A DNA stretch of 61,559 nt, filler included, from 9 parts of 9 records of this genome joined end to end with filler, not necessarily neighbours in it; one strand, 5' to 3'; positions 3,847-55,025 are shown, numbered from the whole stretch's first letter. Notes: a model not told the origin generated them from the sequence alone. Made by a program: numbers and translations.

Positions 3847-5817
3847 TTACTTGATAATCAGCTTGTGTACTGCAACACCAGCTTCAGTTTCGATTTGCAG
3901 TGTGTAAACACCAGTGGTGAATTCACTTGCATTGAACTGAAGTTCTGAACCGCTAACCGGTGCGCTGTAAACAACCTGTCCTGTGAGGTTAACCAGTCTT
4001 ACTGATTTCATCTCAAGGTCAGATTCGATGTTCACAACACCATTGGTTGGGTTCGGATATACATTGAATGATGAAGCAGCCAGTTCGTTGATACCAACAA
4101 TTGTTACCATATCCTCATTTGAAGGATTAGATTCAACATCATCAACAACTGCAGTTGCATAGTAGGTATAAGTACCAGCACTCAAATCAGCATCAGTGTA
4201 TGTTGTTCCGGTAATATCAGTAGCAATTTGTTCACCGTCACGATAGATATTGAAGTAAAGTGATCTTGTTGCATCAGGAACAAATATAGCCGGAGGAGTG
4301 ATCTTAACAGGATTAGCTGTAAGATTTCCTGCGTTTTCAACAAGAACAGGCTTTTCATTGATTGGCAGCAACGCTTCACCGTCACCGGCAAACTCGATGT
4401 AACCCTGAACAGCCCAGTTGTAGATCAGGTCTGGATTTAATGAGGTAAGTGTTACCCATGCACCATTCCAGAACATCATGTTACTATAACCTTCAACTTG
4501 TGGGCCATCATCGCAACCAGCAGGAAATCCTGCAGTAGTGTTACAATTGAAACCAATCCAAAGTTCATCTGTATTATCAAATGGAACCGGTGTATCAAGT
4601 TCAACTTCGTTCCAAACATCAGCAACAACTTCAGTAAGTTCCTGTTCGTAAATCAGTGTCGGATTGCCGGCACCTTGCCATACTTTCAGTGTGTATGTAC
4701 AAAGGTCACCAGGTTCGCCAGGTACAAAGTTGATCTTTGTTACAGCGCCATTTTCGAAGTTGGTGAGATCTGCAGGTTCCCAACGTGCAGCTACGTCAAA
4801 GTCAGCAGCAGCGTTTGTACCAATTGAGTTGGTAATTGTTTCGCCTGAATAAGTGATCCATTCCGGCTCGAAAATACCTGCATATTCCCATGAAAGCTCA
4901 GCATCCATTCCATCAACCGTTGCATCGAAGTTTGTTGGTGGATCAGGAAGAACAACACCACCCTGTGTAATATCGATATTATCGAAATAAGCACCAGGTG
5001 TACCGTTTTCAGCCCATGCATAGAAGTTCATAGCGTGGAATTCGTTGAGTGTACCTGTTCCGAAGGAACCACTACTCCATACCCATTCAACAACCATTTC
5101 GCCATTGAAATACATAACAGCATTGTCAGCATCCAGGTCGATCATGAGTTGAACATTGTGCCATGTGTCATATGTGTAGGTGAAAGCACCTGCACCAGCT
5201 CCACCGGCATCAACTAAACCAGCACCACCAACATCGAAGTATGCCTGCATACCCCATTCACTGCTGGCTCCGGCAAACGCCTGGAGACAGTTGAAGTAAC
5301 CAATTTTATCGGTTGGGATATATACCATGAAGTCGATGTTAAACTGACCTGAGGTATAGTTTTGAGGCAGTATGAGTACGGCATCGTTGGTACCTTCAAT
5401 TACAACTGAATTGTCTCCTTCATAAGCTATGTCGTTTTTAACGATTGGGTCTTCCGTGCTTCCCGGGTTTTCACTCCAGGTTGTCCAGTATTCTTTACCC
5501 TGTGCAACAGCTTGTTGTACGAGGTAATCGTCAGCAACGTAATCTTCGAAAGGTTCGAATACAAGTGAAGGCTGTGGACCACCACCCTGAACAACGAGTG
5601 TTACCGGCACATCAACAGTTGGACTGGCGGGATCGTTGCTTGTAATTGAAATGGTTCCTGTGTAGGTTCCTTCTTCAAGATCAGTAGAGTTGAAAGTAAC
5701 TTCGATGGTTTCTGATCCACCGCCACTAACTGTACCGCTCATAGGAGCAACAGATAGCCAGGCGTCTCCACCACCACCACCAACTACGATGGTATAATCT
5801 TCAACTTCACCATATGC
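3847..5817 (-). CDS. T9SS type-A sorting domain protein (GEVED end, Ig-like, lectin/LamG-like, split FN3); 5'-truncated
   Basis: Frame stays open from the contig edge (AYGEVEDYTIVVGGGGG...) into ORF 3847..5742. C-terminus VYPNPTNG...GVYTLQI...HKLIIK is a canonical T9SS CTD. Confidence 0.9.
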   Translation of the reverse strand, partial: AYGEVEDYTIVVGGGGGDAWLSVAPMSGTVSGGGSETIEVTFNSTDLEEGTYTGTISITSNDPASPTVDVPVTLVVQGGGPQPSLVFEPFEDYVADDYLVQQAVAQGKEYWTTWSENPGSTEDPIVKNDIAYEGDNSVVIEGTNDAVLILPQNYTSGQFNIDFMVYIPTDKIGYFNCLQAFAGASSEWGMQAYFDVGGAGLVDAGGAGAGAFTYTYDTWHNVQLMIDLDADNAVMYFNGEMVVEWVWSSGSFGTGTLNEFHAMNFYAWAENGTPGAYFDNIDITQGGVVLPDPPTNFDATVDGMDAELSWEYAGIFEPEWITYSGETITNSIGTNAAADFDVAARWEPADLTNFENGAVTKINFVPGEPGDLCTYTLKVWQGAGNPTLIYEQELTEVVADVWNEVELDTPVPFDNTDELWIGFNCNTTAGFPAGCDDGPQVEGYSNMMFWNGAWVTLTSLNPDLIYNWAVQGYIEFAGDGEALLPINEKPVLVENAGNLTANPVKITPPAIFVPDATRSLYFNIYRDGEQIATDITGTTYTDADLSAGTYTYYATAVVDDVESNPSNEDMVTIVGINELAASSFNVYPNPTNGVVNIESDLEMKSVRLVNLTGQVVYSAPVSGSELQFNASEFTTGVYTLQIETEAGVAVHKLIIK

Positions 5818-5818
5818 G

Positions 5819-5918
5819 NNNNNNNNNNNNNNNNNNNNNNNNNNNNNNNNNNNNNNNNNNNNTTAATTAATTAANNNNNNNNNNNNNNNNNNNNNNNNNN
5901 NNNNNNNNNNNNNNNNNN
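5819..5918. other. Artificial contig spacer (N-TTAATTAATTAA-N); the same spacer recurs at 15118-15217, 23472-23571, 29316-29415, 35051-35150, 41549-41648, 49572-49671, 54924-55023
   Basis: Identical 100-nt N blocks with a six-frame stop linker; base composition and gene content change across most of them. Confidence 0.98.
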
Positions 5919-6280: not shown

Positions 6281-6572
6281 ATTGTCCATTATCGGGAAAA
6301 GGAATTGCGTTTCCGGCTGAAAAAGCAGCCGGGCTGATATGCTTTCAGCCGGGACCTGTGTTTCTGTAAAAGCCATTTCATCCCAGTAAATGAAGATGCT
6401 ATCGAGGATAGCGCTTCCCGGGTATGACCTTTTTTAAACGGGGAAACCGGGAGTACAGACTCATTTTTATAGATAGTCTTGCCTATATAAATTATTTGAT
6501 AGATAATGGGTTTGGCTAAACTATTTATCATGGAAAAGAATCATCTCAATTCCGTTTTCGGAGAATCAATAA

Positions 6573-8129
6573 ATGACTGGAGAAGAAATGAACTATAGGG
6601 GCGAATGGGAAAGCTCTGCCGAAGATATGATGGCTGAAATGCCTTCATTTGTGAAAATGAAAGTCAGAAAAACGGTTGAACAGCAAGCCCTGAGGAAGGG
6701 GATGTCGAAGATCACCGGTGAATTCTTGAACGATATCATATCCAACATGATGGGAGGGAATTCCGGACATAAGGAGACGGGGGAGGGGACCATTCGTGAT
6801 TTCTATGCTCTGACCGACAATGAACCCATCCTGGCCGGTTTCAAAAGAAGGAGCAAAGCCCCTCATGCCGGTATGGGGAGTATGGCGCCGGTAGAGGACG
6901 GGTCGCGGATTTGGGACGAAGTATCCAGGCAGACTGACAGCGCGAAAGCCAGGGCCCTCTATATCCATACCCCCTTCTGCCTTGCCCGTTGTAAGTTCTG
7001 CGGCTTCTATCACTCGAAGACGAACAAAGACGCTATCTCAGCCTATGTGGACGATCTCCTGATTGAAATGGATATGGTAGCGGATTCGGCCTATGCCTCA
7101 TCAACCCCCTTCAATGCGGTCTATTTCGGGGGAGGGACGCCCACGGACATAGCTGCGGAAGATCTCAAACGGATCATGACCCACCTCCAAAGCCGTTGGA
7201 ATCTGACCAACGACTGCGAAATAACGCTGGAAGGTCGTTTGCACGGCTTTGACGATGACAAGATGGCTGCCTGCCTTGAGCATGGTGTGAACCGATTCTC
7301 CTTTGGTATCCAATCTTTCGATACCCGCATACGCCGTTCGATGGGGCGCATTGAGAAGAAGGAAGTCCTGCTAAAACGCCTTGAAGAGATACTTGAAACC
7401 AACGGGGCCAATGTCTCTATAGACCTGATCTACGGTTTTCCGGAACAGAGCCATGAGATCTGGCTTGACGACCTGAAATCAGCTGTGGAAAGCGGCGTAG
7501 ACTCGGCCAGTATCTATCGTCTTAAGCCGATGCCCGATTCTCCCATTCAGGAGCTGGTGGAGCAGGGCAGGCTCTCCCCCCCCGCCTCTGTGGATATACA
7601 GGCCGAGCAGTTCGCCCTTTCCAATGATTTCTTCCGCACCATGAACGCCCGGCGCTCAGGTGTGACCCATTGGGCCTTTTCCAACCGGGAACGCTGCGTC
7701 TACAACTCCATATCGGCCTACGGAGGCTCCATTCTGCCTGTGGGCTGCGGCGCCGGGGGGAATCTGGGAAAATACGGGGTAATGCAGGGAATGAGCCTTC
7801 AGGAGTATTCCGCGTACATAGAGAGAGGGGAGAAGCCCCTGGGGGCTATGGTGATCGAAAAGAAAGATAACCGTGCCCTTCGCATGCTGGGCGGCGAACT
7901 CCACCTGAATCTGGGCGTCAACCTCAAAGAGCATGCCCGCAAGACGGGCGAAGAGGGGTTGAATGAGATCTTCGCTCCCCTTCTCGAGCAGTGGGACGAG
8001 GCGGGGATGGTCTCGTATGACAGGGAGAGCGGTCTTATGCGGCTTACCGACGCAGGTGTTTTCCATGCGCCTCAGATCCAACAGAACCTGCTTGATTATT
8101 ATGAATGGAAAAAGGGGGGGGACCGGTGA
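6573..8129 (+). CDS. hutW: Heme anaerobic degradation radical SAM methyltransferase (ChuW/HutW family) with N-terminal PCP_red-like extension
   Basis: YIHTPFCLARCKFCGF (CxxxCxxC), VYFGGGTPT, RFSFGIQSF, HemN_C-like end (MRLTDAG), HutW-type N-terminal F..R...HAG segment; HutX domain in the same operon. Confidence 0.85.
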   Translation: MTGEEMNYRGEWESSAEDMMAEMPSFVKMKVRKTVEQQALRKGMSKITGEFLNDIISNMMGGNSGHKETGEGTIRDFYALTDNEPILAGFKRRSKAPHAGMGSMAPVEDGSRIWDEVSRQTDSAKARALYIHTPFCLARCKFCGFYHSKTNKDAISAYVDDLLIEMDMVADSAYASSTPFNAVYFGGGTPTDIAAEDLKRIMTHLQSRWNLTNDCEITLEGRLHGFDDDKMAACLEHGVNRFSFGIQSFDTRIRRSMGRIEKKEVLLKRLEEILETNGANVSIDLIYGFPEQSHEIWLDDLKSAVESGVDSASIYRLKPMPDSPIQELVEQGRLSPPASVDIQAEQFALSNDFFRTMNARRSGVTHWAFSNRERCVYNSISAYGGSILPVGCGAGGNLGKYGVMQGMSLQEYSAYIERGEKPLGAMVIEKKDNRALRMLGGELHLNLGVNLKEHARKTGEEGLNEIFAPLLEQWDEAGMVSYDRESGLMRLTDAGVFHAPQIQQNLLDYYEWKKGGDR

Positions 8130-8677
8130 AAGACAGAGTGAAAGGACTCCTGTACTGGGAGAACATAGACCTGATTACAGTGGGGACCTTCGCGGCCCTG
8201 ATAAGGGTTTCCACCTATCTTATCTCCATATGCGGCGGGGGGATGAATCCCCTGGCCTTTATCCTGAAGAACATCATCGCCACAAGCCTTATGGTCGTAT
8301 TGTGCCACAAAGTCACTCGCTTCGGAGTCCTGACCCTGTATTCCACCGTTACCTATCTGTTTTCCATGATCATATCGGGAAGCGTCATGCTTTCCATTCC
8401 GGTGATTCTGGTCTGCGCCCTGCTGGCGGATGCCCTGATCTATTTCGGGGGGCGAAAGAAACGGCTGGGGGCCGTCCTGTTTGCCGTCATCTTCTATGAG
8501 GTCGGGACGAAACTCTTCGGACTTGTCTACTCTTTCCTGTTCGTCAGGGAGGATATCCGGCTGTTGATCATGCCGGCCGTTGTGGTCTCTATCGGACTCA
8601 TAGGCTCTTTCATCGGCCTGTTCAGTGGAGCGAAATTACTCAAGGAGCTGCGTCATGCCGGGATTATTCGGAAATAG
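8126..8677 (+). CDS. MptD/Trep_Strep-family ECF transporter S component
   Basis: About 183 aa with ~6 TM segments; DLITVGTFAAL start and LLKELRHAGI end; GTG start overlaps the hutW stop (GTGA). Confidence 0.8.
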   Translation: MKDRVKGLLYWENIDLITVGTFAALIRVSTYLISICGGGMNPLAFILKNIIATSLMVVLCHKVTRFGVLTLYSTVTYLFSMIISGSVMLSIPVILVCALLADALIYFGGRKKRLGAVLFAVIFYEVGTKLFGLVYSFLFVREDIRLLIMPAVVVSIGLIGSFIGLFSGAKLLKELRHAGIIRK

Positions 8678-9506
8678 GTTTCACAGATCGAAAGATTCAT
8701 TCGCTATAGGACTGAGCGGATGGACCAAGCTGGGCATGTGCGCAGCCGTATCCGTCGTCACCCTCTTCCTCAAACACGAACCGGCCCTGATCATTCTCCT
8801 GGCAGCGGGAGCGGTTTTCGCCTTCTCCCAGCTGAAGCTGCGGGTTATCCTGTTTCTTTATCTTGCCATTGGCATCCTGTCGTCCATATCCGTGGGCTTC
8901 GCCTCTGTGCTGGGACGGATCGCTTCGAATTTCCACCCCGCCTTTTCGGGGTACGACGCCTTCGTTATGCTCCTTCCTTTTATGCGGGTCATCACAGTGA
9001 TGCAGGTGCTGGTGGTAACGGCCCTCTCCACCAGCCCCCAGGAGATCCTGACCAACCTGAAAAGCATCAGGCTGCCCCGTTTTCTCTATCTGCCCGTCCT
9101 GGTGATGCTCCGCTTTGTCCCTTCCTTTATCAACGATATCAAACAGATCAACGAGAGTCTGAAAGTGCGGGGTCTGCAGATCAATCTGCTGACCATGACG
9201 ATCCGGCCCGGCCTCTCCATACGCTGCAGTGTCATTCCTCTCATCTTCAGAGCCTTCAGATCCTCTGACGAATTGGCCGTCGCCTCAGAGCTGAAAGGGG
9301 TGGGATACTTGAAGAAAACGACTTCCTTCAGGAAGAACAGGATTAGCCGGACTGACTATTTTATGATCCTGGTTTCCGTTCTCCTCCTCTCCTCAGCCCT
9401 CTATGTCCAGTCCCTGGCCCCTCCCCAGGTATCGATGATGGATATGATGAGAAACAGCAAAGCAGAAGTCTCGGAGAGCCCTAATCAGGGACAGGGAGCT
9501 CTATAA
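8655..9506 (+). CDS. ecfT: ECF transporter transmembrane component T
   Basis: LRFVP...I.ESLKVRG and AxASELKG motifs; AAGGAG RBS before ATG 8655. Confidence 0.85.
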   Translation: MPGLFGNRFHRSKDSFAIGLSGWTKLGMCAAVSVVTLFLKHEPALIILLAAGAVFAFSQLKLRVILFLYLAIGILSSISVGFASVLGRIASNFHPAFSGYDAFVMLLPFMRVITVMQVLVVTALSTSPQEILTNLKSIRLPRFLYLPVLVMLRFVPSFINDIKQINESLKVRGLQINLLTMTIRPGLSIRCSVIPLIFRAFRSSDELAVASELKGVGYLKKTTSFRKNRISRTDYFMILVSVLLLSSALYVQSLAPPQVSMMDMMRNSKAEVSESPNQGQGAL

Positions 9507-10945
9507 TGGTAACAATGAAGAATGTATCCTACACCTATCCCCATAGTGAAAAAACCGTCCTTTCCGGATTGAATTATGCCATCGCTCCGGGCGATGTTGT
9601 CCTCGTCACCGGTGCCAGCGGATGCGGGAAATCCACTTTCATGCGCTGCATCAACGGTCTTGTGCCCCACTTCTTTCAGGGGGATCTGCAGGGCGGGGTA
9701 AGCATCGGCGACGTGGATACCAGGGAAGAGAGCATTCCTGAAATCGCCAACAGGGTGGGATCCCTCTTTCAGGATCCGGAACAACAGTTTTTCACACTCG
9801 ATGTGGAAAGCGAGATCGCCTTCGGGCATGAGCAAAGAGGGGTAAAGGCTGAGAGCATCAACGCGGTGATTACCTGCATGGCCGAGCGGCTGGGCATATC
9901 CCACGTGCTAAGATCCTCCCTCTTCACGCTTTCCGAAGGAGAGAAGCAAAAGACTGCTCTGGCTTCGACTCTCTCCATGAAACCGAAGGCGATCCTTCTG
10001 GATGAACCGACGGCCAATCTGGATCACGATTCGACTCTTCATCTGGCACAGTTCGTCAGGGAGTTAAAGGAAGAAGGGATCACGATCATCATCGTGGATC
10101 ACCGCCTTTACTGGCTGGACGGGATCGCTGACGCGACCCTGATCATGAAAGAGGGGAGGATCGTCAGGCAGTGCGCCTTCGAAGAGTTGTATGATGAGGA
10201 GCTGAGAGCCGAGTTCGGGCTGAGGAGCCCGGATGTCCGGGGCCTGTACAAAGAGATCGAAGGGATTCCCTCTACGGACACATGGACGGGAGATGCCGTG
10301 ACGGTCTCGGATCTGACATTCGCTTACAAGGGCAAGGACCTGCTTTTCGAGAATGATAATTTCAGATTTCCCATGGGGAAGGTCAGCTCCGTCATCGGGC
10401 ATAACGGCTGCGGCAAAACCACGCTGGCCCGGCTTCTGACAGGTTTGAGCAAGCTCAAATCGGGAAGTATCTGTGTCGCCGGCGAGAACCTCAGTACGAA
10501 AAAACTGTGTAAAAGAGCGGGCCTGGTCTTTCAGAATTCGGATCACCAGCTCTTCATGAGCACCGTCCTGGAAGAGATGGAAACGGCGGGCCTGAGGCTC
10601 AGCCGGAAAGAACGCAGGGAGAGGGCGGTCGATCTGCTGACCCACTTCAACCTGAAGGACTACCTCCGTGCCCATCCCCAATCCCTTTCGGGAGGGCAGA
10701 AGCAGCGCCTGGTCATTGCCTGCGCTCTGATGAAGGAACCGGATATCCTGATCCTTGACGAGCCTACGAGCGGGCTGGACGGGAAAAATATGTCCGTAAT
10801 AGCCCATACCCTTGAGAAGATCGCAGAACGGGGAAGCTGCGTGATCCTGATAACCCACGATCTGGAACTCATCGCAAGCGCGAGTGATTATATTTTGAAC
10901 CTGGGAGGCTCCCGGAAGGAGGCTTCTGCCGAAAAGGAAGAATAG
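9506..10945 (+). CDS. ECF/ABC ATPase with two nucleotide-binding domains
   Basis: Walker A GASGCGKS and GHNGCGKT, FQDPEQQF Q-loop, LSEGEKQ/LSGGQKQ signatures, two LDEPT motifs. Confidence 0.92.
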   Translation: MVTMKNVSYTYPHSEKTVLSGLNYAIAPGDVVLVTGASGCGKSTFMRCINGLVPHFFQGDLQGGVSIGDVDTREESIPEIANRVGSLFQDPEQQFFTLDVESEIAFGHEQRGVKAESINAVITCMAERLGISHVLRSSLFTLSEGEKQKTALASTLSMKPKAILLDEPTANLDHDSTLHLAQFVRELKEEGITIIIVDHRLYWLDGIADATLIMKEGRIVRQCAFEELYDEELRAEFGLRSPDVRGLYKEIEGIPSTDTWTGDAVTVSDLTFAYKGKDLLFENDNFRFPMGKVSSVIGHNGCGKTTLARLLTGLSKLKSGSICVAGENLSTKKLCKRAGLVFQNSDHQLFMSTVLEEMETAGLRLSRKERRERAVDLLTHFNLKDYLRAHPQSLSGGQKQRLVIACALMKEPDILILDEPTSGLDGKNMSVIAHTLEKIAERGSCVILITHDLELIASASDYILNLGGSRKEASAEKEE

Positions 10946-10946
10946 A

Positions 10947-11966
10947 ATGAAAATAGCCGTTATTTACTCATCCAAGACAGGAAACACGGAAAAAGTGGCC
11001 CGGGCGATTCATAATGCCCTGCCCGAAACCGCAGATCTCATCGCAGCCAAGGATTTTCAGGATGCCCATGATTACGATTTCATCTTTATGGGCTACTGGG
11101 TCGACAAGGGCACAGCTGACCGCGACGCTTTGAAAGTGATGGCTCAGATCACGAATAAGGAGGTGGCCATCTTTGCGACCCTGGGAGCCTATCCGGAATC
11201 TGATCATGCCAGACAAAGCCTTGTGGGGGCTGCCAGTCGCTTCGGAAAAAACACGAAGGTCGTGGCCAGTTATATATGCCAGGGCGCGATTGATCCCAAA
11301 CTCATCGAAATGATGCGGAAAAATCCCGCAGGCTCTCCCCATGGTTCCAGCGAAGAAAGCGAAAAGCGCTGGGCTGCGGCGGCAAGCCGCCCCGATGAGA
11401 AGGACCTGGAGAACGCAGCTGATTTCGCCGTCAAAACGATGGAAACACGGGAGATGTTCGCCCCCTACGAAGAGAAAATGAGGGCCGCTATGAAAGAGAA
11501 ACTGGCACAGGATCAGGGAATGCCGGCCATGACGGCTGTGAAGTACGGCGTTTCTGAAAAAGAAATCTATGAAAACCTTCCGGAAGGATCGGCCACATTT
11601 GTAGACATTTCCCACTTTCGGGATATCTGGGAAGAGATGGCGAGTTGGGAAAAGGTTCAGTTCCTGACCGTTAACTCCGGGATGGTTATGGAAGTTCCCG
11701 GCAAACTCTCTCGGGGAAAAGAGGGGCACGGAATGTTCAATCTTTCCGAAACGGGCGCCCCCGTTCACGGCCATGTGATGGTGGATAACCTGGATTCCCT
11801 GGCCTTCGTCTCCCGCCCTTTCATGGGGCGCGAGAGCCATAACGTAACCTTCTTCGCCAAGGACGGCAGCGTCGCCTTCGCTCTCTATCTCGGCCGGAAT
11901 GAAAAAAGGGAGATCATTCCCGAAGTGAAAGAAGCCTTTTTGAAGCTCAGAGAATCCTTCCAGTAG
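10947..11966 (+). CDS. Flavodoxin (HmuF/FldH-like) fused to a C-terminal ChuX/HutX heme-carrier domain
   Basis: N-terminal YSSKTGNT, GYWVDKG, CQGAIDP...H...PDEKDL flavodoxin; C-terminal GHGMFNL...HGHV...AFVSRPFMGRESH...LYLGR HutX motifs, all in one frame. Confidence 0.85.
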   Translation: MKIAVIYSSKTGNTEKVARAIHNALPETADLIAAKDFQDAHDYDFIFMGYWVDKGTADRDALKVMAQITNKEVAIFATLGAYPESDHARQSLVGAASRFGKNTKVVASYICQGAIDPKLIEMMRKNPAGSPHGSSEESEKRWAAAASRPDEKDLENAADFAVKTMETREMFAPYEEKMRAAMKEKLAQDQGMPAMTAVKYGVSEKEIYENLPEGSATFVDISHFRDIWEEMASWEKVQFLTVNSGMVMEVPGKLSRGKEGHGMFNLSETGAPVHGHVMVDNLDSLAFVSRPFMGRESHNVTFFAKDGSVAFALYLGRNEKREIIPEVKEAFLKLRESFQ

Positions 11967-12366
11967 ATCACTGAGCCGTCACTGCCCTCCGCAAAAAGGA
12001 GGGCCGGCTCTGTTTCCTCCTCACAATCCCTATTCTATTCCCAACGGTTATTCTCTGTGTGGTCTTTGTCCGGCTTCTCCGGGCGTAGACCAGCGAGTGC
12101 CGCTGAGATCCTGATTCCCGCCGGGAGCATATGCCTCATATGCATTTCAACCCATCTCTCTTCCACTGAGAGGCGGGACTTCATCATCACTACGGTCCTT
12201 ATGGATGGAAGCCGAAACATACGATGAAGGCCGCTTGTCAGGATAGGTCGACACCATTTTCCCCCATGAGGGGGAGGCTGATATAACCATATTCCAAGTC
12301 TGTCAAATCTGAGTATCCTATCGATTCCGGAAGCTATAACGGGTTACGGGTTAGGACGGACGCATA

Positions 12367-12393
12367 TAAAAAGCCCCGTTTTGAAACGGGGCT
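12367..12393 (-). terminator. Rho-independent terminator
   Basis: AGCCCCGTTT/AAACGGGGCT stem followed by a T-run on the minus strand, downstream of the lipoprotein gene. Confidence 0.75.
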
Positions 12394-12455
12394 GCGGCTA
12401 TGGCCTAAAATAGTGATAGCCGGTGGCTGACAGGGATCATCCCCGGATCATCAGC

Positions 12456-12896
12456 TTACAGTTCGACCTGAGTGAACTCCACAGCGCTACCCATAATGGT
12501 GTACTCCATGGTAATGCCATCCTCGAGGATGGTGAACACCTTTTCAGTTGCAGTCGCCTCTGTCATCCCCATCGCGGGACAGTACGCCTTGAAGGAAAAA
12601 ATCAGCTTTCCGTTCTCTTCGGTGGTGGTGACCGCTGTCGTATAGACATATGTCATATCACCCATTCCTCCGGATGACTCGTATGTGTCTTCCTTCAGCT
12701 CATAGTTTAACGTACTCTCTTGACCCTGGATTACTGCGCTGCCTGTCCACTGGACACCCATCATATCGTCATATTCTTCAATTGTCTTAGGAAAATCATC
12801 ATCCGAAGAAGATGATCCGTCATCACAGGAAACGAACGCAAGGGAAACCAATATTGCTGATAAAACTAAGAATCTGCTGAAAAAACATTTTTTCAT
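12456..12896 (-). CDS. Lipoprotein, Met-rich, unknown function
   Basis: MKK-hydrophobic-LAFVS|C lipobox followed by a DDGSSSSDD linker; AGGAGAGG RBS; directly downstream of the TonB-dependent receptor. Confidence 0.8.
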   Translation of the reverse strand: MKKCFFSRFLVLSAILVSLAFVSCDDGSSSSDDDFPKTIEEYDDMMGVQWTGSAVIQGQESTLNYELKEDTYESSGGMGDMTYVYTTAVTTTEENGKLIFSFKAYCPAMGMTEATATEKVFTILEDGITMEYTIMGSAVEFTQVEL

Positions 12897-12918
12897 TTTG
12901 CCTCTCCTAAAAAACGTA

Positions 12919-14910
12919 TTAATATTCTATGCGGCCGCCAACCGTTCCGATGACGCCGTCAAAATACCCAAAATAATCTTCCTGATCCATTCCTTCATAA
13001 CTCCCCCCGTCTCCTTCTATGAAGTGGTAGTTGTTCAAAAGGTTTTCTCCGCGGATATATACGGAGAAATGATCTCCAATCTGCTTCTCGGTACCCAGGG
13101 TCAGAAGAAGTTTATCCGGAGATTCAATATCTTCAGAACTCGAGAGAGTTATCGGCGCATCCCATGTGGCCGAACCGAAGATCTTCAGAGCAATGCCGGG
13201 GAATCTGTAGCTGGAATTCAAACGCACTGAATGGGGAACTCTTCCGGTCAGTTCTTCATAGTCGCCGTCATCATAGCTCTTGGCAGCCGTATAGGCGTAG
13301 GAAAGGGAGCCGGAAAAGTTGTTTTGGCTGTAGTGAATACCGGCGTCCCCTCCATAGCTTATGGCCTCCCCGATATTCTCGTAGCTGGTGTCTACGTACC
13401 CGCCGCTGCCGTCGGAATTGGAAGGCGTTTCAATAAGATCGAGTATGTAGTTGTAATAGGCTGCAGCCGAAAAACTGAATCCATTCGGAAATCTCTGTTC
13501 CAGCGAAACATTGACGCCATGAGATTTTTCCGGTTTCAAATCCGGATTCCCATAGATATCGAAGACAGCGGAGCCTCCGCCTGTATGATGAAAAAACCAG
13601 TACTTCTGCTTCAGAGTGGGTATTTTGTACCCCATTCCGTAGGAGATACGGATGGTGGTGTCTTCCGCGGGATCCACTTTCAAGCTTAATTTGGGGGTCA
13701 ATTGGGTCAGTCCCGAATCCTCATCGCCGATGGGGGGAGTAAAGTCAAATCGGAATCCGGGGGTCAGGAGGTAGATATCCCGGGAGCCTATGTTCCAGTC
13801 ATCCTGTGCGAATAAACTGAGGTGAAGGGCCTTTTTCCACTCCTTTTTTCCGAATGATTCCTCGTCTTTCAGCGATTCAAGTTCAGCGTGAGCCCCCGCC
13901 AGCAGGGTATGGGAAATATGGGGGGTCATCTCAATCCGGTATTCCCCCTCAAAACCGGCGTATTCCCTCTCAGAGTGGGACGATCCGCTTTCCAGGTTCA
14001 GGCCGTAATAATTGCCTGTAAAGAAGCCGCTGCCTGACAACCTGTCGGTGATTTCATGCTCTCCCCTGATGCCGCCGTAGACGCGGGGATTGTCATAAGT
14101 GGACTCAGTGGAAGGAACGCCTGACGACGAAAGGCTATTGTATTTACTGATGTACTGATCATAGTTTGCGAAAACGCCCCACTTCCCCTGATCATTAAAG
14201 AAATCAGCCGAGAGTCCCAGAGAGCTCAAAAAGGTAGAAGGGAGTTTGTAGTAATCCTCTTTCTTTCGCCCTCTGTAATAGGACTTTTCCAATCCGTCGT
14301 CATAATCCAGGGACGCCGTCGTTCCTATGCTGTATTTCTCGGTCGTGTAACTGAGGGCACCGGTCGTGAAGGATCTGAGATTCGAGGATAACTCAGAGCT
14401 TAAGCTGGCGCTCAATCTGGGCTCGGAGGGCTTCTCTTTTTTAGTGATTATATTGATGACGCCGCCGATGGCGTCAGAGCCGTATAGGGCAGAACTGGAA
14501 CCTCTGATGATTTCTATTCTCTCTATATTGGCAACGGGAATCTGTCCGGTGGGAAGGGAACCGGCAATTTCTCCGACCAGTTTCACGCCATCCACGAGGA
14601 ATCTGATGTACTCGCCTTCGAATCCCTGCATCATGATGGAACTCACCATCCGTCCGCCTACTGATATGCCGGGGATCTGCTCCAACGCTTCGGAGAGGTT
14701 CGTCGCTCCCGATTCAAGGATCTCTTCCGCCGTTACCACCTCGACTTTCTCACTGGCCTCATCTTTCAGCTCAGGAAACTTGCTTCCCGAAACAATGATA
14801 ACGGCCTCTTCATCCTGGGGGGCCGTTTCCTGTGCCTGTATATTTATAGAAAATGAAAAGAGTATGATCATAACAATCACGAAGTGACTGGATTTTTTTA
14901 ATGGATTCAT
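12919..14910 (-). CDS. TonB-dependent outer membrane receptor (probably heme or iron)
   Basis: Signal peptide; plug motif IERIEIIRGSSSALYGSDAIGGVINIITK; GNPDLKPEKS; ENLLN; terminal aromatic residue. Confidence 0.92.
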   Translation of the reverse strand: MNPLKKSSHFVIVMIILFSFSINIQAQETAPQDEEAVIIVSGSKFPELKDEASEKVEVVTAEEILESGATNLSEALEQIPGISVGGRMVSSIMMQGFEGEYIRFLVDGVKLVGEIAGSLPTGQIPVANIERIEIIRGSSSALYGSDAIGGVINIITKKEKPSEPRLSASLSSELSSNLRSFTTGALSYTTEKYSIGTTASLDYDDGLEKSYYRGRKKEDYYKLPSTFLSSLGLSADFFNDQGKWGVFANYDQYISKYNSLSSSGVPSTESTYDNPRVYGGIRGEHEITDRLSGSGFFTGNYYGLNLESGSSHSEREYAGFEGEYRIEMTPHISHTLLAGAHAELESLKDEESFGKKEWKKALHLSLFAQDDWNIGSRDIYLLTPGFRFDFTPPIGDEDSGLTQLTPKLSLKVDPAEDTTIRISYGMGYKIPTLKQKYWFFHHTGGGSAVFDIYGNPDLKPEKSHGVNVSLEQRFPNGFSFSAAAYYNYILDLIETPSNSDGSGGYVDTSYENIGEAISYGGDAGIHYSQNNFSGSLSYAYTAAKSYDDGDYEELTGRVPHSVRLNSSYRFPGIALKIFGSATWDAPITLSSSEDIESPDKLLLTLGTEKQIGDHFSVYIRGENLLNNYHFIEGDGGSYEGMDQEDYFGYFDGVIGTVGGRIEY

Positions 14911-14924
14911 TTTGTTCCTCTAGT

Positions 14925-14946
14925 AATATTAGCTATATCTAATATT
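14925..14946. promoter_or_regulatory. Palindromic operator candidate (TTAG-N6-CTAA core)
   Basis: AATATTAG-ctatat-CTAATATT immediately upstream of the receptor RBS. Confidence 0.5.
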
Positions 14947-15217
14947 TGGTGCTGCCTTTTCCGCAGTTCAAAACGGTTTCGGGATCGATCTGAAAAAATA
15001 AACCTGATTTGAACCCAAGATCAGGGGTTTAGTAAAATCCTTGTTAGCCTTACCAGAAGTATGGCTGAGTAAGAAAAGTAAGTAAAGCTAACAAGGTTAA
15101 TATGGGTTAACTGTATTNNNNNNNNNNNNNNNNNNNNNNNNNNNNNNNNNNNNNNNNNNNNTTAATTAATTAANNNNNNNNNNNNNNNNNNNNNNNNNNN
15201 NNNNNNNNNNNNNNNNN

Positions 15218-23471: not shown

Positions 23472-23629
23472 NNNNNNNNNNNNNNNNNNNNNNNNNNNNN
23501 NNNNNNNNNNNNNNNTTAATTAATTAANNNNNNNNNNNNNNNNNNNNNNNNNNNNNNNNNNNNNNNNNNNNAAGAAACTAATTAAAATTTATATAATTAT
23601 GCAATAAATACAGTAAAAGATTCTAGTGA

Positions 23630-29315: not shown

Positions 29316-29415
29316 NNNNNNNNNNNNNNNNNNNNNNNNNNNNNNNNNNNNNNNNNNNNTTAATTAATTAANNNNNNNNNNNNNNNNNNNNNNNNNNNNN
29401 NNNNNNNNNNNNNNN

Positions 29416-34089: not shown

Positions 34090-35150
34090 GATGATTATCT
34101 CCTTTTACTCCAACATTCATGTGCAAATATATGTTAGTAGTTATTCGTAATACTAATTTAGATTTAGTATATATATAGATTATGAACAAGTATGCTACAA
34201 AACTATAATTTAGTATTACTCATTGATTTAATAATACATATCAAACAACAGAGTAGCAGAACAATAAACAAATATAGTCTAGTAATTACATCTATTGTAT
34301 GAATAAAGTGTGCAATTGTAGCAGAAAAAGCAAGATCATTGGTTGGTTTTACACAAATTATGCATATTTTGAGGTTTCTGAATTTGGAACGTGTTAAAGA
34401 CATACTTTTGAACAAATAAATGTTACATACTGCACGCAACAAGGACGAAGCAATACATAATAGTAATCGCACAAAATATTGAAGATCCTGCCAAACATAC
34501 CAATTAGTAATGTGACAGGCATTCCCAGAGTATTCAGAAGAGGCAACTGCAATATTAAGCTAATGAATAGGAAGTATTAGCCATATAGATACTTTATATT
34601 AGTATAAATTTATTTTTGTTTTTGTCAAGAGTCCTTGATTTCCAGTCCAGAACCTCACAAGATTATTTGAATGATTCTTTTTTGAAGAGATGAAACGCAA
34701 GTTAGTGAATCCCGCACCCCAATTCACTGGAAAAACGAAAAACAAGCAACTGACAAATATAAAAATCCAAATAATCGATAGGAAGAAGTTGTTTTAACAA
34801 AATATTAAATACATTTTTTTGGATTTATATCATCATACTATAAAATAAACGATTTCATTGTAGCTCAGTGGTTTACTTTAAAAAATTAGTCATATTATCA
34901 ACAAACATATTATTACAATCAAAAAAAGATAACTTATGTTGCTTTTTCAGATAACAGAACCAATCATAAAAGAATAGTGAAAGTAATCCTTTTATACCGA
35001 AAAAAGATATTGCGAGACATACTTACATTGTAAGTACATGAAGGAGGAAANNNNNNNNNNNNNNNNNNNNNNNNNNNNNNNNNNNNNNNNNNNNTTAATT
35101 AATTAANNNNNNNNNNNNNNNNNNNNNNNNNNNNNNNNNNNNNNNNNNNN

Positions 35151-41530: not shown

Positions 41531-41648
41531 GAACGATGCCTCCGGCGGNNNNNNNNNNNNNNNNNNNNNNNNNNNNNNNNNNNNNNNNNNNNTTAATTAA
41601 TTAANNNNNNNNNNNNNNNNNNNNNNNNNNNNNNNNNNNNNNNNNNNN

Positions 41649-49571: not shown

Positions 49572-49671
49572 NNNNNNNNNNNNNNNNNNNNNNNNNNNNN
49601 NNNNNNNNNNNNNNNTTAATTAATTAANNNNNNNNNNNNNNNNNNNNNNNNNNNNNNNNNNNNNNNNNNNN

Positions 49672-54660: not shown

Positions 54661-55025
54661 GGTATTCGCGCCGTCAAATTTTAAAAAAATTGTACACCAT
54701 AATCAAAGAAGGCCTGAAGCTGAAATGTAGAAATGAGAGGAAAGGTACCAGAATGAGCCCTTTATATTGATGATTGAACCGCAACAGTATAACACCAATA
54801 ACCAACCCCATGCAAGAATTTCATCCGGATACGGTCCATATGATAATATCGGTTATTCCGGGAAACCCCTGCCGAGGGCATCCCCATGTTCCCGGGATTT
54901 TGAAAGCGTAAAGAAAACATTGANNNNNNNNNNNNNNNNNNNNNNNNNNNNNNNNNNNNNNNNNNNNTTAATTAATTAANNNNNNNNNNNNNNNNNNNNN
55001 NNNNNNNNNNNNNNNNNNNNNNNCG

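Follow-up and report, generated by a model that had tools for sequence, protein, structure and literature searches.

How does heme cross the inner membrane of a Gram-negative anaerobe whose ring-opening enzyme is encoded beside an energy-coupling factor (ECF) transporter? The question was raised by a locus at positions 6573–14910 of the window, the whole stretch of 61,559 bases that was analysed, in which nine contigs are joined through eight N44-TTAATTAATTAA-N44 spacers. In Gram-negative bacteria, inner-membrane heme import is taught as the task of a periplasmic binding protein (PBP) and a type II ATP-binding cassette (ABC) permease, and the only demonstrated case of heme import by an ECF transporter known to us comes from a Gram-positive coccus. 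The analysis indicated that these genes probably form a two-operon locus for heme acquisition and anaerobic heme degradation, carried by an Oceanispirochaeta-like spirochaete. The locus lies entirely on one contig piece (5919–15117; 9,199 bp, GC 0.517), and its closest relative was found in an Oceanispirochaeta metagenome-assembled genome (MAG; locus L001).

Organization of the locus

Five genes follow one another on the forward strand, overlapping or abutting: hutW (6573–8129), the ECF S component (8105–8677), the ECF T component (8625–9506), a fused A-A' double ATPase (9506–10945), and a flavodoxin-HutX fusion (10947–11966). The hutW and S genes overlap by 25 nt, and this overlap is retained in L001. 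The S and T genes overlap by up to 52 nt; T may start at the GTG at 8625 or at a more internal codon. T and AA' have 1 nt in common, and a gap of 1 nt separates AA' from the fusion. A second unit on the complementary strand consists of a TonB-dependent receptor (TBDR) gene (12919–14910) followed by a gene for a putative lipoprotein (12456–12896), with 22 nt between the stop of the former and the start of the latter. The two units are convergent, with 489 nt of non-coding sequence between them. This layout, in which overlapping or abutting genes converge on a TonB receptor-lipoprotein pair, had been proposed in an earlier sequence-only reading and was confirmed at these coordinates by profile searches.

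The ECF transporter

The dedicated ECF module was complete: neighbouring genes, some of them overlapping, specify an S component, a T component and two A domains. The T component was of the CbiQ type (PF02361 CbiQ, 57.2 bits against a threshold of 25) and was 83% identical to its L001 counterpart. The double ATPase scored 330.4 bits against TIGR04520 ECF_ATPase_1 (threshold 315) and contained two ABC_tran stretches. The S component had been described in the sequence-only reading as belonging to an MptD-type ECF transporter. This description held at the level of Pfam, where PF09605 was passed (37.2 vs 28.7 bits), but not at that of NCBIfam, where the MptD model TIGR02185 was failed (22.1 bits, cut-off 76.45). 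By these scores the protein belongs, distantly, to the Pfam Trep_Strep family, with which MptD is grouped under PF09605, and lies outside the NCBIfam MptD subfamily.

The AlphaFold model of the S component, built with 24 relatives, had a predicted local distance difference test (pLDDT) score of 86 and a predicted template modelling score (pTM) of 0.80; in it, a short N-terminal helix precedes six long ones. All PDB matches with TM > 0.5 were S components, namely 5edl (TMq 0.58), RibU 5kbw (0.57), 5kc0, and ThiT 4tkr (0.53), while the Foldseek E-values were weak (best 4.1e-3). As modelled, the protein has the fold of an ECF S component. Two motifs were invariant in the 24-sequence alignment, GGGMNP (residues 44–49, with Met47 in at least 90%) and R148-E149, and in the model they map to the short loops that connect helices 1–2 and 5–6. 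S components usually have these loops on the outer side of the membrane, where they make up the substrate-binding site. A further invariant motif, ELRHAG, is at the cytoplasmic C-terminus. No match of the S component to the metal S-component families (CbiM/NikM) could be found at E <= 0.01 in Pfam or NCBIfam.

Recurrence of the gene set in other genomes

The S-family alignment of 24 proteins yielded 250 confirmed loci in contigs representing one genome per species. The best 80 of these 250 by similarity to the query were taken with flanks of up to 10 kb, and their six-frame open reading frames (ORFs) were searched with the locus proteins. A partner was counted when it lay within 7 kb of the S gene, and 51 loci counted as well flanked, having no less than 4 kb of sequence upstream of S and 4.5 kb downstream. 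The T component was present in 79/80 loci and AA' in 73/80, and both occurred in all 51 well-flanked loci. HutW accompanied the transporter in 69/80 loci (47/51 well flanked), flavodoxin in 59/80 (45/51), TBDR in 44/80 (34/51), and HutX in 31/80 (26/51). The small lipoprotein was seen in L001 only (1/80; 1/51). Every well-flanked locus with a TBDR also had both HutW and flavodoxin (34/34). The typical order was hutW-(TBDR)-S-T-AA'-(hutX)-flavodoxin.

The expected recurrence of HutW with ECF and TBDR was thus borne out by gene neighbourhood, the ECF genes being conserved next to hutW in the counts given above. The idea of a one-off hybrid had to be given up in favour of a widespread conserved cluster that occurs in several phyla, and the gene arrangement, which recurs in other genomes, is not due to chance. 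Counted by eye from the record titles, 40 of the 80 loci came from Desulfo-, Geobacter-type, Bilophila or "Deltaproteobacteria" lineages, 20 from Lentisphaerae, Kiritimatiellae or Verrucomicrobiota, and six from Sutterella, Turicimonas or Aphodousia. Four were from spirochaetes, two from Cloacimonadota, one each from Succinivibrionaceae, Deferribacterales and Candidatus Sabulitectum, and five were unassigned. None of the 80 was Gram-positive by name. Desulfovibrio, Bilophila and Sutterella, Gram-negative anaerobes and gut genera, are among the carriers. The parts belong to their families, are arranged in operons, and are conserved in association across Gram-negative anaerobes.

The other neighbours were surveyed by clustering the 494 remaining ORFs and scanning representatives of the 20 largest clusters. 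Among the 80 loci, ExbB was found in 24, ExbD in 18, and TonB in 18 plus 7. A gene of the PNPOx_N type, which we take to be the fold family of HutZ/HugZ, was present in 13/80 loci as a HutZ-like neighbour, and a DtxR-type iron-dependent repressor in 11/80. These recurrent neighbours point to a TonB-powered, iron-related use of heme. Seven loci (L016, L018, L022, L023, L029, L038, and L055) had a DUF4198 protein near the receptor genes.

A Peripla_BP_2 gene adjoined the ECF genes in 4/80 loci (L017 6836–7831, L038 8957–9943, L050 8886–9860, and L058 8835–9857), and it was directly upstream of S in three of the four. L050 and L058 had no hutW, TBDR or flavodoxin within 7 kb. The pairing of a soluble binding protein with an ECF transporter would be unusual. 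Because Peripla_BP_2 occurred in only these four loci, the ECF transporter is the sole inner-membrane importer in most clusters. This near-absence of the classical binding protein and its permease is the strongest reason to assign to the ECF transporter the ligand that the other cluster proteins handle.

The heme degradation proteins

The hutW product was assigned to the hutW/chuW-type radical S-adenosylmethionine (SAM) methyltransferases of the anaerobilin synthase family, with 430.9 bits against TIGR04107 (equivalog cut-off 400). It failed the HemW model (149.3 bits, cut-off 205.4) and the HemN model (129.3 bits, cut-off 324.95), so the radical SAM protein groups with ChuW/HutW and not with HemN/HemW, as had been predicted. 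Its Radical_SAM domain scored 68.8 bits. The cysteines of the CxxxCxxC motif (C136, C140, and C143) were invariant across 68 sequences, and all 68 full-length HutW frames among the loci matched TIGR04107 at E <= 1e-50. By family membership, the enzyme would open the heme ring in a SAM-dependent manner to give anaerobilin and iron.

HutW carries an additional N-terminal domain of about 88 amino acids, in which residues 12–53 match PF08369 PCP_red (35.4 bits vs 32.5). PCP_red is known as the C-terminal domain of the protochlorophyllide reductase subunit BchB/ChlB, whereas in HutW it is attached to the N-terminus of a radical SAM enzyme. It was present in 14 of the 68 cluster-linked HutW frames and had no conserved Cys or His. 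Perhaps it serves in docking or covering the tetrapyrrole, which is a guess. Some other cluster-linked HutW frames (L039 15385–17001, L045 15158–16780, and L060 15201–16814) begin not with PCP_red but with roughly 100 additional residues rich in His, which may be a metal- or heme-binding tail.

After L001, the nearest HutW was that of a Lentisphaeria locus (L002; 58% identity), followed by Cloacimonadota (46–47%) and Verrucomicrobiota-type loci (44–45%), with the other spirochaetes lower at 38–39%. In a sample of 301 Spirochaetota genomes, a ChuW/HutW match at E <= 1e-60 was obtained in 12, and only the Oceanispirochaeta MAG was above the family cut-off. Acquisition of the spirochaete HutW by transfer would fit these comparisons, because ChuW/HutW is rare in Spirochaetota and non-spirochaete versions are nearer than those of other spirochaetes.

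The last gene of the forward unit joins two domains in one frame, a flavodoxin of the HmuF/FldH type (residues 1–160; Flavodoxin_3 PF12641, 168 bits) and a HutX/ChuX heme carrier (residues 187–334; TIGR04108, 157.2 bits vs 110). The HutX half matched HutX-type 5exv (3.2e-30) and ChuX 2ovi (3e-20) in the PDB. The flavodoxin half matched one solved structure, 8G64 (E 9e-14), which is described in the relevant passages of its report as the heme-bound FldH of Fusobacterium nucleatum, with His134 as ligand of the heme iron (PMC10404700). The phosphate loop for flavin mononucleotide (FMN) is kept in the flavodoxin half (YSSKTGNT vs YSSETGNT in 8G64), and H132 of the fusion aligns with the native His134 of FldH (position 137 of the 8G64 chain, owing to a three-residue tag offset). 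Flavodoxin and HutX were fused in just 2/80 loci, L001 and L075, the latter in the opposite order; the usual arrangement was hutX followed by a separate flavodoxin gene. In a large protein database, proteins carrying both domains formed six clusters at 90% identity.

The TonB-dependent receptor and the lipoprotein

The receptor, which is proposed to take up heme, had matches to the Plug (92.1 bits) and barrel (125 bits) domains. It scored 161.8 bits against the TonB-hemin model TIGR01785 (cut-off 316.85) and 155.7 bits against a B12 receptor model (cut-off 599.7). By its Plug and barrel domains the protein is a generic TonB-dependent receptor, the ligand of which is left unnamed by sequence alone. 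It contains a stretch YKIPT...FFHHT...GNPDLKPE, and the interval from YKIPT to GNPDLKPE presumably resembles the FRAP/NPNL region of heme receptors, with a His between the boxes. When 43 cluster-linked receptors were compared by eye, one column of this interval was His in 19 and Met in 16, which is suggestive only as a heme-receptor trait.

The putative lipoprotein of 146 amino acids is Met-rich and predicted to be mostly beta strand. Its hydrophobic N-terminus ends in FVSC, which is lipobox-like, and the signal peptide is followed by an acidic Ser/Asp tether, so that a spirochaetal lipoprotein is plausible. L001 has a homologue in the corresponding place. The protein matched no family of Pfam or NCBIfam. 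A search among 1.84 billion representatives returned its own cluster and three weak repeat-like matches (E 1e-5 to 8e-4), and among 5.8 billion sequences only the protein itself and one 76% relative were found. As judged from the databases searched, the small lipoprotein is lineage-specific, without relatives beyond Oceanispirochaeta. The AlphaFold model, based on two sequences, was poor (pLDDT 47.8) and consisted of one helix and about seven strands. Atlas leads pointed to lipocalin-like families (scores 0.90–0.92); they are leads only, with which the poor model is compatible while proving nothing. The protein may help the receptor to handle its ligand.

The host and its closest relative

The contig aligned with the Oceanispirochaeta MAG at 82.0% identity over 5,447 nt and 78.5% over 2,412 nt, with identical gene order, and protein identities to L001 ranged from 64% to 88%. 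The closest relatives of the S protein and of the fusion sit on one 5.46-Mb contig. The prediction of a diderm host, probably a spirochaete, is therefore supported by about 80% DNA identity and the same gene order, and the MAG served as a stand-in for the host genome. In L001, exbB-exbD-tonB precede the receptor, and a gene for the heme-binding protein ChaN (PF04187) follows the lipoprotein. The contig under study stops 207 bp upstream of the receptor, short of where L001 carries exbBD-tonB.

ChaN (PF04187) stands beside the receptor in three spirochaete loci (L001 14047–14934, L003 5216–6103, and L011 5318–6220). The small lipoprotein of the present locus is unrelated to this ChaN/Cofac_haem_bdg lipoprotein, and neither a ChaN gene nor a remnant of one could be detected by similarity in the 489-nt gap of the contig. 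Elsewhere in the closest genome, seven Peripla_BP_2 proteins were encoded.

Candidate regulatory sequences and other features of the window

A candidate promoter/operator region was located 5' of hutW on the forward strand (6479–6560), where TTGCCT-17-GATAAT is followed by a conserved GAATC..N5..(G/A)ATTC. This block is conserved against L001, whereas the flanking sequence diverges, and a regulatory function may be assumed for it. On the complementary strand, a perfect 8-bp inverted repeat, AATATTAG-N6-CTAATATT, lies 15 nt upstream of the receptor start codon (14925–14946), just upstream of the ribosome-binding site, and is a candidate operator; L001 has tonB at that position. A terminator-like hairpin with a 9-bp stem, six GC pairs and a subsequent T run follows the lipoprotein gene (12372–12393, complementary strand) as a candidate from a single consensus match. 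Promoter-like matches on the contig were not above those of shuffled sequences (10 vs 7.1), and nor were terminator-like matches (12 vs 9.8), so single sites are candidates only. No riboswitch or other RNA was detected on the contig at E <= 1, including no cobalamin riboswitch, and no Fur box could be established by eye upstream of hutW or of the receptor. Apart from the inverted repeats listed here, no repeats of note were present on the contig. One of these is a 15-nt inverted repeat with arms 93% complementary and 28 nt apart at the right end of the contig (15039–15096), upstream of the receptor promoter region.

At the left end, the contig begins with the 3' fragment of a TetR-family regulator gene truncated by the contig end (5921–6280, forward strand; PF16925 TetR_C_13, 60 bits). 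The fragment is probably not part of the heme system, because its position is not conserved in the closest relative, where ribosomal protein S4 is encoded upstream instead.

The spacers of the window occupy 5819–5918, 15118–15217, 23472–23571, 29316–29415, 35051–35150, 41549–41648, 49572–49671, and 54924–55023. GC content over the nine pieces ranged from 0.31 to 0.56, and the pieces evidently come from different organisms. The contigs are separate at the spacers, and neighbourhood arguments across these points are therefore invalid. Three of the eight other pieces were compared with the genome closest to the locus and gave short matches or none, unlike the locus piece, which matched it nearly end to end. 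A neighbouring unrelated contig encodes a 631-amino-acid protein with a type IX secretion system (T9SS) C-terminal sorting domain (3847–5742), which points to a Bacteroidota-type organism in the sample and is uninformative on the host of the locus.

Comparison with known heme systems

The degradation half of the locus (HutW, HutX, and the HmuF-like flavodoxin) consists of characterised families, and the outer membrane is served by a generic TonB system. What is unusual is the ECF transporter at the inner membrane. The layout of the chu locus of E. coli O157:H7 and the hut locus of Vibrio cholerae is in part general knowledge. As set out in sections of three reports, these loci comprise ChuA/HutA, ChuTUV/HutBCD, ChuW/HutW, ChuX/HutX, and ChuY/HutZ (PMC10114669, PMC12670364, PMC10404700). 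A TonB receptor, a ChuW/HutW ring opener and a HutX/ChuX carrier are likewise present here. The inner-membrane step of chu/hut, however, is performed by a type II ABC permease with its periplasmic binding protein in place of the ECF transporter. Further differences are the lack of ChuY on the 9.2 kb, the fusion of HutX to flavodoxin, and the PCP_red domain on HutW. The sequence-only reading had stressed that no PBP, ChuY or HutZ is present on the contig, and within the 9.2 kb this was correct; the weight placed on it was unfounded, because a contig of 9,199 bp spans too little for such an absence to count for much.

The hmuTRUVWF system of Fusobacterium nucleatum resembles the locus in that HmuW is linked to HmuF, a Flavodoxin_3-type protein with the paralogue FldH. 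According to portions of the report on this system, HmuF carries heme to the ring opener and then reduces anaerobilin (PMC10404700). By analogy, the flavodoxin domain of the present fusion is likely to have the same role. Fusobacterium differs in using a PBP-dependent ABC transporter, HmuT/U/V, where the present locus has an ECF transporter and a flavodoxin fused to HutX. In the same report, the clusters compared, including that of Treponema denticola, were listed with HmuT/U/V and not with an ECF transporter, and the term "ECF" is nowhere used in it (PMC10404700).

For ECF-mediated import, the nearest precedent is LhaSTA of Staphylococcus lugdunensis, a heme ECF transporter whose S component was proposed to take heme directly (PMC7299338). 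Compared by description only, LhaSTA is likewise a dedicated S/T/A module within a heme-acquisition locus. Unlike the present system, it operates in a Gram-positive cell that has no outer membrane or TonB receptor, and it belongs to the isd locus without ChuW/HutW.

In the open-access literature, to which the search was confined with supplements and subscription journals lying outside it, no paper linking ChuW, HutW, HmuW or anaerobilin to an ECF transporter was found. This agrees with the earlier statement that the combination is not known as a characterised system. Nothing was found in the open-access literature on an anaerobilin synthase in Desulfovibrio either. In the excerpted text of a bacterial heme review of 2025, "ECF" was not used for a transporter, and in the excerpts of the ChuW/HutW papers, hits to "ECF" were rejected as EcFldA/EcFpr or ECF sigma factors. 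The literature on ECF, heme, S component and TonB together concerned B12 or general review. The Trep_Strep family turned up in a metagenome study, and MptD together with ECF transporters in papers that, judging by their titles, mention it as an annotation. The locus is a real, widespread and uncharacterised variant of known heme systems.

Proposed pathway and alternative explanations

In the proposed pathway, the TonB-dependent receptor would take heme across the outer membrane, perhaps aided by the small lipoprotein and energised by ExbB-ExbD-TonB, the genes of which lie in the closest relative just past the position where the contig ends. The membrane-embedded S component would capture periplasmic heme directly, without a soluble binding protein, and the T scaffold and the fused AA' ATPase would drive it into the cytoplasm. 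There the flavodoxin-HutX fusion may receive heme and pass it to HutW, which would open the ring without oxygen, freeing iron and leaving a linear tetrapyrrole of the anaerobilin type. Like HmuF in Fusobacterium, the fusion may then use its FMN domain to reduce this reactive product. We infer that the receptor and the S component bind heme, and likewise each transfer from one part of the system to the next and the regulation by iron.

Several points weigh against this pathway. It is from gene context that we infer heme to be what the S component and the receptor carry; the receptor is below the heme-family cut-off with an about equal B12 score, and the S component falls far short of the MptD model. 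A TBDR was missing within 7 kb in 17/51 well-flanked loci. The counts, being those of the best 80 of 250 loci, describe this S subfamily and not all Trep_Strep transporters, and they are not independent events, as many of the 80 genomes are related. Only 9.2 kb of the organism is visible, and a classical ABC heme route is possible in the closest genome, given its seven Peripla_BP_2 proteins.

Among the alternatives, the main purpose of heme import could be to supply a cofactor (to cytochromes, for instance) rather than iron, with HutW and the fusion buffering excess heme. Half of the 80 loci (40) come from Desulfo-, Geobacter-type, Bilophila or "Deltaproteobacteria" lineages, which are cytochrome-rich. 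HutX and HmuF are also heme carriers as well as degradation partners, according to passages of one report (PMC10404700). The DtxR-type iron-dependent repressors in 11/80 loci speak against a mainly cofactor role, and HutW, as the most constant non-transport partner (47/51), fits degradation as the core purpose. Cofactor salvage as the principal function is therefore considered unlikely, although the uses of heme as cofactor and as iron source are mutually compatible.

A second explanation is that the receptor and the ECF transporter import another tetrapyrrole, such as a corrinoid, a metal-free porphyrin or another metalloporphyrin, which HutW and the fusion would process or detoxify. The near-equal, sub-cut-off B12 and heme scores of the receptor (155.7 and 161.8) would be in line with it, as would the origin of PCP_red in a chlorophyll-precursor enzyme family. 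ChuW and HutW also accept several metal-free porphyrins, according to one study (PMC10114669). Against it, HutW scored above its equivalog cut-off, and the clusters repeatedly include HutX, an HmuF-like flavodoxin that retains the heme-ligand His, ChaN, HutZ-like genes and iron repressors. That no cobalamin riboswitch was detected on the contig also speaks against B12. Another tetrapyrrole as the ligand is very unlikely.

Still more improbable is that the ECF transporter carries a metal ion or a vitamin while heme enters through a classical ABC importer with a PBP, the genes of which lie elsewhere. Co and Ni are known substrates of ECF transporters, the T match is CbiQ-type, seven Peripla_BP_2 proteins are encoded off-locus in the closest genome and a PBP lies beside the ECF genes in 4/80 loci, but S has no CbiM/NikM match at E <= 0.01, overlaps hutW by 25 nt, lies in most loci between hutW/TBDR and hutX/flavodoxin, and is associated with hutW across several phyla.

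Significance of the locus

Taking heme acquisition and degradation as the function, the findings tilt, by a small measure, towards a third envelope route for heme in Desulfobacterota, Sutterellaceae, Bilophila, Lentisphaerae/Kiritimatiellae, Cloacimonadota, Deferribacterales, and some spirochaetes. Along it, heme would pass from a TonB receptor to an ECF S component without a soluble binding protein, and the S component would be closely coupled to HutW, in many cases through an overlap of their genes. Lineage-specific fusions (PCP_red-HutW and flavodoxin-HutX) would form part of a closed chain that releases neither free heme nor free anaerobilin.

If this is true, a large group of strict anaerobes, including Sutterella, Bilophila and Desulfovibrio of the gut, would obtain heme iron by a different machine. 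It would also pose the mechanistic question of how a hydrophobic ligand is transferred from a TonB receptor to a membrane-embedded S component. Cultured carriers of the cluster exist in Desulfoluna, Desulfuromusa, and Desulfobaculum. The flavodoxin-HutX and PCP_red-HutW fusions, in turn, suggest which protein contacts may be made during anaerobic heme breakdown.

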